Shown here: positions 3,348 to 15,900 of the stretch, piece after piece | How the letters are laid out: every line of letters starts with the position of its first letter | Numbering within the stretch: position 1 is the first letter of the stretch | From: Escherichia coli | Lineage (GTDB): Bacteria; Pseudomonadota; Gammaproteobacteria; Enterobacterales; Enterobacteriaceae | Strand: one strand, 5' to 3' | NCBI RefSeq assembly: GCF_003334765.1 | Contig: NZ_QOWT01000050.1 | DNA length: 19,733 bases | The notes under the pieces: generated by a model | The model's input: the letters and a program-made list of their open reading frames with translations, nothing else | The model's database searches: none | What the model was told of the DNA's origin: nothing | Position numbers and translations under genes: made by a program

Positions 3348-3658
3348 GCAGCATACTGATTTGATGTACCTGGGCGGTCAACCTGAAAAATCCTTTCCCC
3401 CCTGCATTGCCATCCGGGGGGAGTTCTGCACAAACCTGTTGCAATCGCCCCACCAGTTGTGAACATCTTTCCTCAAAAGTGTTGTCGTATCTCGCATGGA
3501 AGAAAAGATCCTGACTAAGCAGCAACACACAACGTATTGCGGAACCTGCATGTTTTTCCTGTAACTAGTGTATTACCACATATGGTAATAGCTACCTGTG
3601 TGGTTTCGCTGGTGTAACGAACGGTGCAATAGTGATCCACACCCAACGCCTGAAATCA

Positions 3659-5380
3659 GGTTCTTCCGCAACTTGGGTGGAAGAAAATGGATGAAACTTT
3701 CTGGTGAACAAAGATCTAAGCTGTTTTAAGTCATGGGCAACTCAATGCACTCTCTTAAGACACTTCTACAGTTACCTTGCGGATGGCGATGCAGTCGACA
3801 AATTATTAGCTCTGACGGTATAACCCTCCATCTCCACGGAAAACGCAAAACAGCACAATGTCCTGAATGCTTTAAGCGTAGCGACTCTGTTCATAGTTGT
3901 CGTCGGCGCCGGATACAGCATCTACCCTGCTCAGGACATACGCTATGGCTTGTATTTTCTGTCCGCCACTGGTACTGCCGTAACCCGGCTTGTTCACGTA
4001 AAATTTTTGCCGAGTCGCTTGCTCCCTTCGCCGGTTCACACCAACAGTCTTCACAGGCGTTACAAAATTTACAACGTCAACTGGGATTAATCGCCGGAGG
4101 TGAGGCCGGGAAACGGGCAGCAACGGCAGTGGGTCTCCGTTGCAGTGCTGATACTCTCCTTCGCAGGGTTATCAATACCCCGGAGACGAAACAGTCAGGC
4201 TCGCCTCATGTCGGTATTGATGAGTGGGCGTGGCATCGGGGCCACCGTTACGGTACGTTAATCGTCAATCTTGATACTCACCGTCCCCTCGTCCTGCTTC
4301 CCGGCCGTGATCAGCGTACGCTGGCGACCTGGTTCAGAAAATATCCGGAAATACAGGTTGTCTCGCGTGATCGCAGTGGAGTCTATGCGACAGCAGCACG
4401 TGAAGGTGCACCTCAGGCCAGACAGGTGGCCGATCGATGGCATCTGCTAAAAAATATTGGCGATGCGCCTGAACGAATGATGTATAGACATATACCTCTG
4501 ATACGTCTTGTTGCCAGTGAGTTGTCACCAAAGAAATCACCTGATCCAGAACCATCTGTGCCTGCAGCATCGCTCCGTCGTCCGGAACGCCTAAAACAAC
4601 AAACCCGCAAAAAACGGCATCAGCGTTGGACAGAGGTTATGGCCCTGCATAACAAGGGATGTAGTTTCAGGGAAATATCCCGTATTACAGGCCTGTCGCG
4701 TGTGACAGTCAGTCGCTGGGTGCGTTCAGGAACATTCCCTGAAATGTCAACCCGACCGCCAAAGCGAGGGCTTCTGGACCCATGGAGGGAGTGGTTAAAA
4801 GAGCAACGAGAAAGTGGTAATTATAACGCCAGCCGGATATGGCGGGAAATGGTGGCCCGGGGATTTACAGGCAGTGAAACCATCGTCAGGGATGCGGTTG
4901 CCAAATGGCGTAAAGGCTGGAACCCACCGGTTACTACTGCCGTCAGACTTCCTTCAGTGTCCCGGGTAAGCCGCTGGTTGATGCCCTGGAGAATAACCAG
5001 GGATGAAGAAAATTATGCTTCCCGATTTATTAGTCTGATGTGTGAAAAAGAACCTGAGCTGAAAATAGCGCAGCAACTGGCACTCGAGTTCTACCGTATT
5101 CTGAAAACCCAAAATAAATCACAGCTAAGCAGTTGGTTCACTCGAGTCCACGAAAGCGGTTCAGCAGAATTTCGGCGCGTGGCGGCGGGGATGGAAGCTG
5201 ATGCTGCAGCTATATGTGAGGCAATCAGTAGTCACTGGAGTAATGGTGTTGTCGAAGGTCATGTAAATCGCCTGAAGATGCTGAAACGCCAGATGTATGG
5301 TCGAGCAGGATTTGAACTACTCAGGCAGAGGGTAATGAGTCCACTGGCATGAAAATCTCCACCCAGGTTGCGGAAGAGCC
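3659..5380 (+). mobile_element. ISL3-family insertion sequence, apparently intact (about 1.72 kb)
   Basis: Terminal inverted repeats: left GGTTCTTCCGCAACTTGGGTGGA (3659-3681) versus the reverse complement of the right end, GGCTCTTCCGCAACCTGGGTGGA (5358-5380), 21 of 23 matching. They enclose a single transposase ORF. No matching 8-bp direct repeats flank it (tgaaatca versus actttcat). Confidence 0.8.
3733..5352 (+). CDS. ISL3-family transposase
   Basis: 539 aa; Cys/His-rich N-terminal zinc-finger-like region (CPEC...C...H...CRNPAC), acidic DDE-type core, C-terminal HWSNGVVEGHVNRLKMLKRQMYGRAGFELLRQRV matching the conserved SNGxxEGxNxxxKxxKRxxYG motif of ISL3 transposases. Exact start uncertain (alternative Met at 3745). 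Confidence 0.85.
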   Translation: MGNSMHSLKTLLQLPCGWRCSRQIISSDGITLHLHGKRKTAQCPECFKRSDSVHSCRRRRIQHLPCSGHTLWLVFSVRHWYCRNPACSRKIFAESLAPFAGSHQQSSQALQNLQRQLGLIAGGEAGKRAATAVGLRCSADTLLRRVINTPETKQSGSPHVGIDEWAWHRGHRYGTLIVNLDTHRPLVLLPGRDQRTLATWFRKYPEIQVVSRDRSGVYATAAREGAPQARQVADRWHLLKNIGDAPERMMYRHIPLIRLVASELSPKKSPDPEPSVPAASLRRPERLKQQTRKKRHQRWTEVMALHNKGCSFREISRITGLSRVTVSRWVRSGTFPEMSTRPPKRGLLDPWREWLKEQRESGNYNASRIWREMVARGFTGSETIVRDAVAKWRKGWNPPVTTAVRLPSVSRVSRWLMPWRITRDEENYASRFISLMCEKEPELKIAQQLALEFYRILKTQNKSQLSSWFTRVHESGSAEFRRVAAGMEADAAAICEAISSHWSNGVVEGHVNRLKMLKRQMYGRAGFELLRQRVMSPLA

Positions 5381-5496
5381 ACTTTCATCCGTCGTTGACA
5401 CATGCATCACAACAGCTCCTCATAGGCACTCAGTGGTCGATGTTCCACCTGACTGATCTGCTGCCAGAGCGGGGCGTGAGGTTCCGGTACTATCTG

Positions 5497-5655
5497 CTAG
5501 CCAGACGACACTGAGCAGAGGCGATGTGAGGCCACCAGTTTCTCATTACTGTAGATCCGCAACTCATCGTTCAGCGATATTCGTATCGAGACTGGCTGAC
5601 CACACAGCATTTCGGGAACGCTGTACTGATTACCTCCAACTTCGTTATAGCGGGT
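5497..5655 (-). pseudogene. Remnant of IS21-family istA transposase 3' end
   Basis: Minus-strand translation ...RYNEVGGNQYSVPEMLCGQPVSIRISLNDELRIYSNEKLVASHRL... matches the conserved C-terminal pattern of IstA (N-x-YSVP ... V-x-IR ... L-x-IY ... VA-x-H). No upstream transposase body and no istB; truncated next to the ISL3 element. Confidence 0.35.
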
Positions 5656-13653: not shown

Positions 13654-13806
13654 TGTACACGGCCGGATGTTATTGCTGAATGTTTCTTCGTCAGATATTC
13701 AGGAACAGTTGTAGTAACGAATTTTACCGATCTCTGTACACGGCCGGACGCCGTCAGTGTATACGGGCGGACGTTCCATGCTGCATGACTACATCCGGCC
13801 CGGATG
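13654..13806. repeat. GC-rich short repeats: TGTACACGGCCGGA(T/C)G twice (13654-13669, 13735-13750) plus palindromic CATCCGGCCCGGATG (13792-13806)
   Basis: Direct repeats 81 bp apart and a related palindrome, in an ORF-poor region. The GCCGGATG core resembles part of enterobacterial REP/BIME elements; that resemblance is partial. Confidence 0.4.
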
Positions 13807-15228
13807 TCAATGAGTCCGTCAGGAACGCTTCGCTTCGAAACCCGGCCTGGATACCAGCGCCGGCACGCCGGGAAGAAGTTGATATGGTGGTTGCCGGACA
13901 ACAGCGCTCCTGGATTGACTGCTGCATCACTCAACCACGCTGAATATCAAAGGAGAGCGTTACCGATTAAAAGAGAAACGGAAAGCTGTGGTGATGACCC
14001 AAAACAACACGACAATCAGTGAGGATGGAATGGTGAAAATCAGACTGCATCAGTGTAGAAAATATACTGGCTGGCATGAAAATGGCCCGGCTCGTGGCGT
14101 TGACATATTCTCTCCTGAGCATCCTGAATGACTGCAGTTGCTGTGGAAAAGTAAGCAGTCTCCACCCACGGCACCACTTAACAGACATTCAGTAACTCAC
14201 CCCAGACTTTCTATAACGCTTATCGGTGCACTGAAAACAGGAGAGTGCGCTTAAAACCGCAGACCGCATTGCGGGTGTTACTGCATGACAGCCTGGCGGT
14301 ATTGTGAGATGTCGGCAGGAACCGATGTCTGCGCAGGGGGAACTTCCGTGATCGGGATAAGTGCAGAAGAAATCAGATCACGACGTAAACCTGCAGTGCC
14401 TGACGCTGCAAGTGGCATTAACCATGGGACGTTGCCGATCCCGGATTGCGGAAACAGGAGCACTATTTTCTGCCGCGGGGAGTACCTCTGGCAGTAAATC
14501 CGGCTCGCTCATCTGACCGTCTCTCTCCCGGAAAAGACCAGAAATGAGATCGTCACCTCAACAGCAGGGAAGATGTCTTGACAGACTGGTTATATTGCAT
14601 ACGATTTATGAAGAAAAAGACAGCAAATATGGAGGCTATAGCGGAGAACACCCTACGAAATTCCTGTGAAAAACGATTGAAAAAACGATCAGATTCGATT
14701 CGTTTTTATATGCTTTTTGGGCACGTGGCGATGACGAACTGTTGCATGTGCAGAGGAGAATGCACCCGGAAGCACCAGAATCATCCAGAAAGGCAGAACG
14801 ATTACGCATCAAACCAGGAGACAGCAATATCAGGATAACATACTGATTTAAAATGAATTTACAGCAATACGTGAAAACATTTTTTACTTAAAGGAGACAG
14901 ATGCGCTGAAGACAGTGCAGGTATTTTTATATAAAAATGAGAAGGTTACGGGATGTCTATCCGGCACACTATGACCGGAGAATATCAGTCAGGCTTAAAA
15001 AGACAATAAATACAGTGAGTTAAATACACAGAGAAAACGAAAACGTAGTATCAGAGGGTACATCTTACAACAGAGACTGAATTTCCGGTTTTTCATAACC
15101 GGCACATTCCGGAAAGAGCAGGCTAACCGGAGGCTTTCTGACACCAGTCCCTGGCAGTTTAATCTGTACATCATGTACGGATGTTTTGTTCGCATTTTTA
15201 AAATCGGCAAAAATGCGAGAAGAGCAGC

Positions 15229-15446
15229 TATATTGTGGATGAACTGAAAAGTGCCCGGGAGCAACAAAAAAGGCGTGATGAACGTGCTGATGGTTCCGTT
15301 CCGCTGAAACTGTCCGGAAAAATCCACAAACAGCCTGAAAGTATTGCCCGAAGTCGTGGTGCCCCCCAAAAAAACTGTTGAATGAAATGATTGAGCTGGC
15401 GTACCAGGATTTTGTGGCAAATGAGCAGCACAAGACTCGGAGTTAA
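15229..15446 (+). pseudogene. Frameshifted small ORF (possible RHH-type regulator remnant) interrupted at an A7 homopolymer
   Basis: One frame reads ...YIVDELKSAREQQKRRDERADGSVPLKLSGKIHKQPESIARSRGAPQK and stops at 15379-15381; the -1 frame continues KKLLNEMIELAYQDFVANEQHKTRS* to 15446. The junction is the A7 run at 15368-15374. No ATG start upstream. Confidence 0.3.
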
Positions 15447-15900
15447 AGACTGCAGGGTCCCCGGTTACCAATTCTGCAACGTACACAACGAATGCATCCG
15501 GCTCTTACCTGTGAGGGGCACGAAAATTATACATTGAGCATGAGTGGATAATCTCGGGTGAGAGTCTCCCGTTTTTACACTATTCACTAAAGGTGAGGCA
15601 TATCATTCAGTCTCTCTGAATTCTTCATTTCAGTAACTTCAGCTACCGTCGTTTCATCTCCCCCACGAACCGGGGCCGCAACTTGTTGTATCAATACCAA
15701 ATTGTTGGTCATTACTGTCCTGTATCACTGGGCTGACAAGTGAACTGAAATCCGCACCTTAATATTCTGACTGGCTGCGTACATTCATGGCATGAAGCGG
15801 CCGGAGCGGCTGAGCTGAAGGTCCGTTGTGAGCGAGGAGTGATCATTAGCCTCTCAGCCGGATGCCTTAAAGAGCGTACGCCAGAAATAAAAGGATTGCG

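Follow-up and report, generated by a model that had tools for sequence, protein, structure and literature searches.

A probable internal stretch of a mosaic tRNA-Phe island, flanked by rare cargo, in an Escherichia coli contig

Islands at pheV and the locus under study

The Escherichia coli islands at tRNA-Phe known as GI-pheV have been described as mosaics in which the modules are flanked by insertion sequences (IS) and intP4 is the only conserved gene; among the modules are those named flu and yee, the latter related to CP4-44 (Nhu et al., PLoS Genet 2024, PMC11537424). That paper names neither alpA nor Ag43 nor ISEc38. The present subject is a stretch of 19,733 nt from an E. coli assembly (contig NZ_QOWT01000050.1), called the window below, and in particular its positions 3348-15900. 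A sequence-only reading had taken this segment for a discrete accessory element of about 12.5 kb lying between chromosomal-type modules. Comparison with complete genomes makes another picture very probable: the segment is an internal stretch of a mosaic, P4-integrase island of about 55 kb at tRNA-Phe, consisting of an IS junction and a decaying backbone, and its flanks are swappable cargo. The structure is of an already known kind and is present in annotated public genomes at 99-100% identity.

How closely does the locus fit the description of GI-pheV? In the near-identical genomes, it has the pheV site by yqgA, an adjacent intP4-type integrase, a 22-bp imperfect attR, and a mosaic of IS-bounded modules that include flu and yee, which lie distally and are followed by the kps locus. 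It differs from the GI-pheV types of uropathogenic E. coli and ST131 in its cargo, which is malXY, acnB-citCDEFXG, MFS/amidohydrolase/GntR, and MFS/hydrolase/LysR rather than iuc, sat, nan, or pap.

The other close relatives are the CP4 prophages of K-12. AlpA, YagK/YfjJ, a YeeP/YfjP-type GTPase, Ag43 (flu), antirestriction/RadC, and CbtA/CbeA are all held in common with CP4-44, CP4-57, and CP4-6, and the AlpA encoded here falls in the Pfam family that is named after CP4-57. Unlike those prophages, the locus has no intact DUF3987 or primase-like gene, and cargo and IS elements separate its module from the integrase, which is about 30 kb away. The gene order around alpA presumably also differs from that in K-12 CP4-57. 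In the B-strain genome BLR(DE3), only the zinc-ribbon gene of the window finds a match, at 90%.

The window within the pheV island of its relatives

Searching 5,426 complete E. coli genomes by megablast with the whole window placed it on the E. coli chromosome. The genome of strain F1022 (NZ_OY754357.1) covers the window from end to end in two pieces, each 99.98% identical by local blastn, and nine more genomes match it at 99%. The only break between the two F1022 pieces is an IS2 that the window lacks, inserted at window positions 10206-10211, inside a truncated hha. Since F1022 has this IS2 and the window does not, the source strain is very near to F1022 yet distinct from it. At least 80% of the window is found in only 22 of the 5,426 genomes, which is not the conserved synteny expected of a core region, and the horizontal acquisition and decay proposed from the sequence are supported. 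In the plasmid collection, no plasmid carries at least 80% of the window, and none has the region as a unit; the matches there are to IS elements, backbone fragments, and the right cassette only.

In F1022, the island can be followed through its full length. It opens with yqgA, tRNA-Phe (pheV), a tyrosine integrase, IS debris, marR, and IS100, and continues with IS66 debris, malY/malX, agaR, acnB, and citCDEFXG. The genes of the window come next, in the order MFS/amidohydrolase/GntR, ISEc38, the segment, and MFS/hydrolase/LysR. To their right lie the GTPase gene, Ag43, DUF905/DUF932, antirestriction, RadC, CbeA/CbtA, and DUF4942 genes and then attR, beyond which are an IS110 remnant, the kps capsule cluster, and yghD/gsp. 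On the F1022 record, tRNA-Phe occupies 1011512-1011587, beside yqgA, and the window maps to 965020-986088. The tyrosine-type recombinase/integrase is annotated at 1010052-1011314, about 200 bp from tRNA-Phe, and is presumably of the intP4 type. The attR is a 22-bp direct repeat that originates from the 3' terminus of pheV (TTCGATTCCGATTCCGG-CACCA; 44020-44041 of locus L001), just past the DUF4942 gene. It was found with a 17-mer of the tRNA end, 24-mer and 19-mer ends having given no match, and equals the published GI-pheV form except for one substitution (PMC11537424). The island thus measured is about 55.5 kb long; the window begins about 25 kb from the tRNA and stops about 9 kb short of attR. 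Strain ST70 has the same gene order.

The absence of an integrase and a tRNA had been one ground for seeing a free-standing element. It is true of the window, in which a tRNA scan found none and no integrase is present either, but not of the locus: in the near-identical genomes both lie outside it, about 25 kb to the left, and are therefore not missing. Could the segment nonetheless be a discrete island of about 12.5 kb that settled between core-like metabolic modules and later lost its own integrase and attachment sites? The concentration of IS elements and pseudogenes in the segment would agree with this, as would a window without integrase or tRNA. The idea is barely credible, however, given that the integrase, tRNA-Phe, and attR of an enclosing island have been found and that in F1022 and ST70 the whole window, both flanks included, is internal to GI-pheV. 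Nor are the flanks chromosomal in distribution. The left module (321-3347) occurs in 33 of the 5,426 genomes, and the right cassette (15901-19462) is at least 80% covered in 103. The core (5800-15800) is at least 80% covered in 337 and partially matched in 4,459, at a median of 2 and up to 13 places per genome. The core is the most widespread part, and both flanks, which had been called chromosomal-type, are rare island cargo, rarer and more mobile than the segment. They vary independently of it, and no genome among those examined joins the GntR and LysR flanks directly, as an empty site would.

Base composition does not set the segment apart either. Its GC content is 47.2%, against 47.5% for the window, with 44.8% in the left flank and 51.3% in the right cassette; the composition shift that had been reported comes down to a strong AT bias confined to one 960-bp intergenic spacer (10401-11360, 36.2% GC). 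The boundaries at 3348 and 15900 are ends of genes rather than junctions, and the comparative breakpoints fall at 3612/3620 on the left and at 15818-15847 on the right. What holds up from the sequence-only reading is the inventory: ISEc38, IS remnants, two YagK/YfjJ Gp2-type genes, AlpA, pseudogenes, and the AT-rich spacer are all real, and the gene types of both flanks were correctly named (MFS/amidohydrolase/GntR on the left, MFS/alpha-beta hydrolase/LysR on the right).

According to the F1022 annotation, the left cargo (321-3612) consists of an MFS transporter gene (321-1724, minus strand), an amidohydrolase gene (1702-2499, minus), a GntR regulator gene (2622-3347, plus), and 265 bp of downstream DNA. 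It is the distal end of a block of about 24 kb that runs through IS100, IS66 debris, malXY, agaR, acnB, citCDEFXG, and MFS/amidohydrolase/GntR. Directly after it comes a 47-bp terminal fragment of IS100 (3613-3659, plus; local blastn, 97.9% to 6438-6484 of locus L002), which repeats, in direct orientation, the outer end of the complete IS100 found by marR about 24 kb upstream in F1022. In strain AR13438, marR is followed at once by the 47-bp IS100 end and ISEc38, and homology to the window begins exactly at 3613. F1022 therefore differs from AR13438 by a block of about 24 kb, from the remainder of IS100 to window position 3612, that is bracketed by IS100-end direct repeats, and the AR13438 arrangement is the exact product expected from recombination between the two 47-bp copies. 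AR13438 may have lost the block by repeat-mediated deletion, or the F1022 lineage may have gained it by insertion. The acnB-cit-MFS-amidohydrolase-GntR block also occurs in unrelated contexts: in strain 10 it stands between IS100 and LacI/ABC sugar genes, and in GmM066 a fragment of it lies in a cadC-side island remnant; homology stops at window position 3620 in both.

The IS100 end leads into ISEc38 (3659-5380, plus), a 1,722-bp element of the ISL3 family, so named by PGAP, with an intact 539-aa transposase (3733-5352) and 23-bp inverted repeats that are 91% complementary (3659-3681 and 5358-5380). Its 8-bp flanks, TGAAATCA and ACTTTCAT, are unlike each other. With no target-site duplication, the element marks a rearrangement junction, which is a further point against an insertion into an empty site. 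Past it are a pseudogene of an IS21-family IstA ("Mu transposase domain"; 5407-5719, minus), called by PGAP in F1022, SM107, AR13438, and ST70; a DUF4222 N-terminal remnant (5800-5889, plus), called as a pseudogene by PGAP in the same four genomes; an orphan 238-aa open reading frame (ORF) without a family match in any search (6083-6799, minus); and, adjoining it, a short truncated ORF (6839-7015, minus). In a tblastn search of the window, the IstA proteins of IS100 and ISEc10 gave no match at 5407-5719, so the IS21-family label there is PGAP's only. The piece 5381-7114 is variable. It is missing from the modules of strains FCI1 and D8, whose homology begins at 7115; these two share the backbone only from that point rightwards and have other cargo on the left.

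On the reading that these comparisons make very probable, the segment has two parts, an IS junction (about 3613-7114), comprising the IS100 end, ISEc38, the IS21-family and DUF4222 remnants, and the orphan ORF, and a conserved but decaying backbone (about 7115-15839) common to CP4-44- and CP4-57-like islands. After one cargo cassette, the backbone resumes with the GTPase-Ag43 "flu" module and then the "yee" module. Both metabolic modules are swappable cargo: the left one is the end of the IS100-bracketed block of about 24 kb, and the right one, a cassette of 3.7 kb bounded by REP-like palindromes, occupies a hotspot for cargo immediately 5' of the GTPase gene. The segment itself would be immobile. 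Any mobility would belong to the island as a unit, with IntP4 recombining attL with attR and AlpA probably serving as activator or excisionase, and the AT-rich spacer may be subject to silencing of the H-NS/Hha type; these roles are predicted from knowledge of the respective families. The interior would be remodelled by three routes: insertion of IS elements, deletions that these or other repeats mediate, and homologous recombination with paralogous copies of the island, which most E. coli genomes contain.

Several points weigh against placing the segment in GI-pheV in just this way. The pheV context is borrowed from near-identical and 99%-identical genomes, the window's own surroundings beyond 19.7 kb being unseen. 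In AR13438, the island integrase has no tRNA upstream (locus L005, 1-4432); an IS1 and a hypothetical gene occupy the tRNA position, which suggests an IS1-associated rearrangement of attL and means that the canonical attL is not kept by all relatives. Excision of the island and the function of AlpA are both extrapolated from knowledge of their families, and the order of events behind the 24-kb difference is likewise inferred.

Was the island built in one piece? A different possibility is that the DNA from about 7115 through flu/yee to attR is what remains of another, once independent CP4-like element, which inserted in tandem beside an older pheV island and whose integrase and attL were lost when an IS-mediated deletion occurred at the ISEc38/IS100 junction. 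The missing target duplication of ISEc38 and the unrelated IS debris on either side of it do point to a deletion there. The same module also occurs in islands with quite different left contexts, and in K-12 CP4-57 an alpA-type module presumably lies near the integrase (intA-yfjH-alpA-yfjI-yfjJ). Tandem accretion is still unlikely. In AR13438, about 5 kb of DNA, made up of IS debris and marR, is all that lies between the single integrase and the segment; searches for a pheV-like att remnant inside the island found none in loci L001 and L003 with several mismatches allowed, or in L002 with a 24-mer as the only query; and strain 54214, too, has a marR gene ahead of the module, as would fit one element rather than two.

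The decaying backbone

If the segment is an internal stretch of GI-pheV, as the evidence strongly favors, most of its length is backbone. One product of this part (about 7115-15839) is a 199-aa, "inovirus-type Gp2" small Rep-like protein (9345-9944, minus), weakly matched by the Pfam families REP_ORF2-G2P (2.1e-3) and YagK_YfjJ_C (0.01). Homologues down to 37% identity occur in Orbus, Limnobaculum, and Hafnia, and one database homologue is named "rolling circle replication-associated protein." Across ten intact sequences, H89 and H91 (in G-L-H-I-H-F) and Y155-x-x-S-Y159-L-x-K are invariant, corresponding to the HUH and two-tyrosine motifs. An AlphaFold 2 model (pLDDT 82) gave weak matches to the HUH-nuclease fold. 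The "Rep-like" label is supported by the motifs and compatible with the modelled fold; the activity is a predicted one. The protein also recurs across E. coli island backbones.

Does such a protein, together with the other Gp2-type genes, mark a formerly autonomous replicon, that is, an integrated filamentous phage or rolling-circle plasmid? The retained HUH and YxxxY motifs, the weak REP_ORF2-G2P match, and a tandem 13-bp array nearby would speak for such an origin. It is very improbable all the same, since there is no other inovirus function in the segment (PHROG matches are all of "unknown function" except AlpA, and none is structural or for assembly), no plasmid covers 80% or more of the window, and the module is chromosomal and multi-copy in P4-type islands. 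An inovirus prophage proper was rejected because morphogenesis and coat genes are missing by PHROGs. Likewise rejected was a phage-inducible chromosomal island or P4-like satellite: there are no intact primase/helicase or capsid-redirecting genes, and the integrase is about 30 kb off.

The other backbone genes may be taken in order. A YagK/YfjJ-domain ("inovirus Gp2-type") protein of 188 aa (7130-7696, minus) is recognized by Pfam YagK_YfjJ_C (2.9e-8), PHROG 32179 (6e-54), and PGAP, and is followed by an 80-aa YagK/YfjJ fragment (7724-7966, minus; YagK_YfjJ_C 0.03). By BLASTP, the 188-aa and 199-aa proteins have no significant similarity (best E value, 0.48), and no HUH motif can be made out in the 188-aa copy. 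Next is an overlapping pair of genes for DUF7828 and zinc-ribbon proteins of 141 and 129 aa (8168-8979, minus; Pfam DUF7828, 1.6e-20 and 1.4e-29; Zn_ribbon_11, 2.2e-14 and 1.1e-3). Beyond the Rep-like gene, the N-terminally truncated hha (10176-10325, minus) encodes 49 aa that match positions 24-71 of 72 of the NCBIfam Hha model (4.2e-23) and Pfam HHA (3.9e-20).

The AT-rich, non-coding spacer (10401-11360) separates hha from a divergent gene for a 263-aa protein (11361-12152, plus). Within it, at 10974-11030, are 4.4 copies of a 13-bp tandem repeat, TTACAAGGTNNAN, with ATACTTCTAT repeats on its sides. Copy number is strain dependent, the array being 26 bp longer in FCI1 and D8 and 13 bp longer in STEC639. 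The array may be an operator or iteron array, since it lies about 340 bp upstream of the 263-aa gene, whose product has a ribbon-helix-helix-like N terminus (NCBIfam aCcr1, residues 6-33, E value of 2.5e-3, below the cut-off). The 263-aa protein has no Pfam, PADLOC, or PDB match. The more distant module of strain 54214 (locus L007) has neither this gene nor the spacer.

The 68-aa product of alpA (12536-12742, plus) matches Pfam Phage_AlpA (2.4e-7) and HTH_17 (3.7e-5) and PHROG 66, "excisionase and transcriptional regulator" (9.6e-10); its score for TIGR01764 "excise" fell under the cut-off. A conserved 205-aa gene of no family (12821-13438, plus) lies 3' of alpA, and the two together (12536-13438) are 95% identical to strain 54214. 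There follows a decayed stretch (13668-15839, plus) that contains a C-terminal remnant of IstB, the IS21-family helper ATPase (13898-14011, plus; tblastn; PGAP pseudogene), some 1.2 kb devoid of intact genes, and roughly the final 70 codons of a 384-aa gene (15232-15431, plus; tblastn) that is intact in strain 54214. Identity to L007 is 88% over 13832-15227. An "AAA ATPase" pseudogene considered as a primase-like gene proved to be the IstB remnant, and nothing in the window corresponds to the DUF3987 protein of STEC639. Two observations on this stretch stand on their own. The roughly 1.2 kb at 14012-15231 have no intact ORFs or family matches and yet are about 88% conserved with L007 14926-16322, unannotated there too. 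Beside the IstB remnant, some 68 bp (13667-13735) are present in the window and F1022 and are absent or replaced in SM107 and AR13438.

Wider searches brought little more. The 238-aa, 263-aa, and 205-aa proteins have no family in NCBIfam, PHROGs, or Pfam, and a PDB sequence search with the 199-, 263-, and 238-aa proteins gave no significant match. PADLOC found no defence system, only weak helix-turn-helix-type matches to AlpA (E values of at least 1.5e-4), and Rfam returned nothing relevant at gathering thresholds over the whole window or at E values of up to 1 over 15700-19733. Serglycin rows in the Pfam output were rejected as an artefact of the GS linkers joining concatenated proteins.

The cargo hotspot and its hairpins

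The right cargo cassette (15840-19509) carries an MFS transporter gene (15901-17136, minus), an alpha/beta hydrolase gene (17271-18422, minus), and a LysR regulator gene (18575-19462, plus). A Kosakonia cowanii plasmid (NZ_CP107078) has it at 93% identity over window positions 15818-19528. The window then closes with the first 14 codons of the YeeP/YfjP-type GTPase gene (19692-19733, plus; 14 of 14 identical by tblastn; F1022 annotation), and beyond it the backbone runs on into Ag43 (flu) and the yee/CbtA-CbeA module.

What do other islands carry at this point? In SM107, homology ends at 15839 and restarts at 19510, with a hypothetical/GNAT/DUF2971 cassette in between. FCI1 has there a 10-kb TonB-receptor/ABC/ETEC_3214/integrase cassette, WP7-S17 and strain 10205 have still others, and strain 54214 has no cassette and an intact 384-aa gene. 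At least five alternative contents were seen at 15839|19510 (loci L004, L006, L007, and L134-L136): MFS/hydrolase/LysR; hypothetical/GNAT/DUF2971; hypothetical/DUF2971; TonB-receptor/ABC/ETEC_3214/site-specific integrase; and DUF4365/hypothetical.

Every cassette at this site is bounded by inverted copies of a hairpin, "type B" on the left and "type A" on the right, and the cassette-less strain 54214 has neither. In the window, the left end is marked by a degenerate REP-like palindrome of about 27 bp (15821-15847, minus) with the type B loop CTCGCTCA, which no longer folds here and is intact in FCI1 and Kosakonia. The right end has an intact type A hairpin, AATGTCCGCTCCTGGCACAGAGCGGAC (19510-19536, plus), with stem GTCCGCTC/GAGCGGAC and loop CTGGCACA (-9.7 kcal/mol, z score of -2.8). 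It lies about 150 bp upstream of the flu-module GTPase gene, as type A does in two of the three further islands that were sampled, the remaining one having a 144-aa ORF in place of that gene. Elsewhere, hairpins are at 21703 and 24857 of L004, at 20735, 27511, and 30720 of L006, and at 5253, 5993, and 12989 of L011.

The hairpin is not confined to islands of this type. In E. coli it is intergenic and present at 1 to 6 places per genome, with at least 80% of a 43-nt query matched in 1,304 genomes. Species-representative genomes contain at least 120 stretches, with multiple copies in Mixta, Pantoea, Erwinia, Cedecea, Citrobacter, and Enterobacter; among the matches listed are also Hyphomicrobium metagenome-assembled genomes (MAGs), Nitrosospira, and Idiomarina, and the consensus among them is AA-GTCCGCTT-TGGCAC-AGCGGAC. 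On three Hyphomicrobium sp. MAG contigs (L037, L039, and L033), hairpins form same-orientation arrays with a spacing of 1-3 kb and give rise to spurious short ORFs (with peptides such as MSA..KRT and VRFWHLADI). No Rfam family matches the hairpin, and a full-text literature search with its sequence strings returned no paper. Our reading is that it is a REP-like dispersed palindrome. Like REP and REPIN elements, the hairpins are short imperfect palindromes, occur in multiple copies in many genomes, lie between genes in E. coli, and sometimes form inverted doublets; unlike them, they are low-copy in E. coli and have no Rfam family. The sequence itself, AATGTCCGCTT-TGGCAC-AAAGCGGACATT, we take to be unlike the E. 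coli REP/PU consensus.

On this reading, the cassettes would be chromosomal operons from other Enterobacterales that were captured along with flanking repeats, and cassette replacement may use the microhomology that these repeats offer. A bolder proposal is that 15839|19510 is a dedicated cargo-exchange hotspot of P4-type islands, into and out of which cassettes captured from other Enterobacterales chromosomes move via the conserved REP-like hairpin AATGTCCGCTY-TGGCAC-RAGCGGAC, and that the backbone HUH/YxxxY protein could act on the hairpins. If true, this would be an analogue of the cassette shuffling of integrons or pdif modules. It is highly doubtful: none of 120 listed hairpin loci of other species (940 kb) encodes Gp2-like or zinc-ribbon proteins, and the want of a Gp2-like gene there argues against it. 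An integron as such was rejected, the defining genes not being there.

Overall, the placement of the segment within GI-pheV has little significance beyond correct annotation. It does illustrate that gene content within a 20-kb window can misplace the boundaries of an island: chromosomal-looking, regulator-linked metabolic modules can be the rarest and most mobile cargo, and DNA littered with IS elements and rich in pseudogenes can be the conserved backbone of a large island that is anchored at a tRNA gene and has its integrase tens of kilobases away. The hairpin-marked cargo hotspot and the widely conserved REP-like palindrome, which fall outside what had been claimed for the segment, may merit a systematic look. 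To the published modular scheme, the locus adds one rare GI-pheV variant, with cit/malX/MFS cargo.

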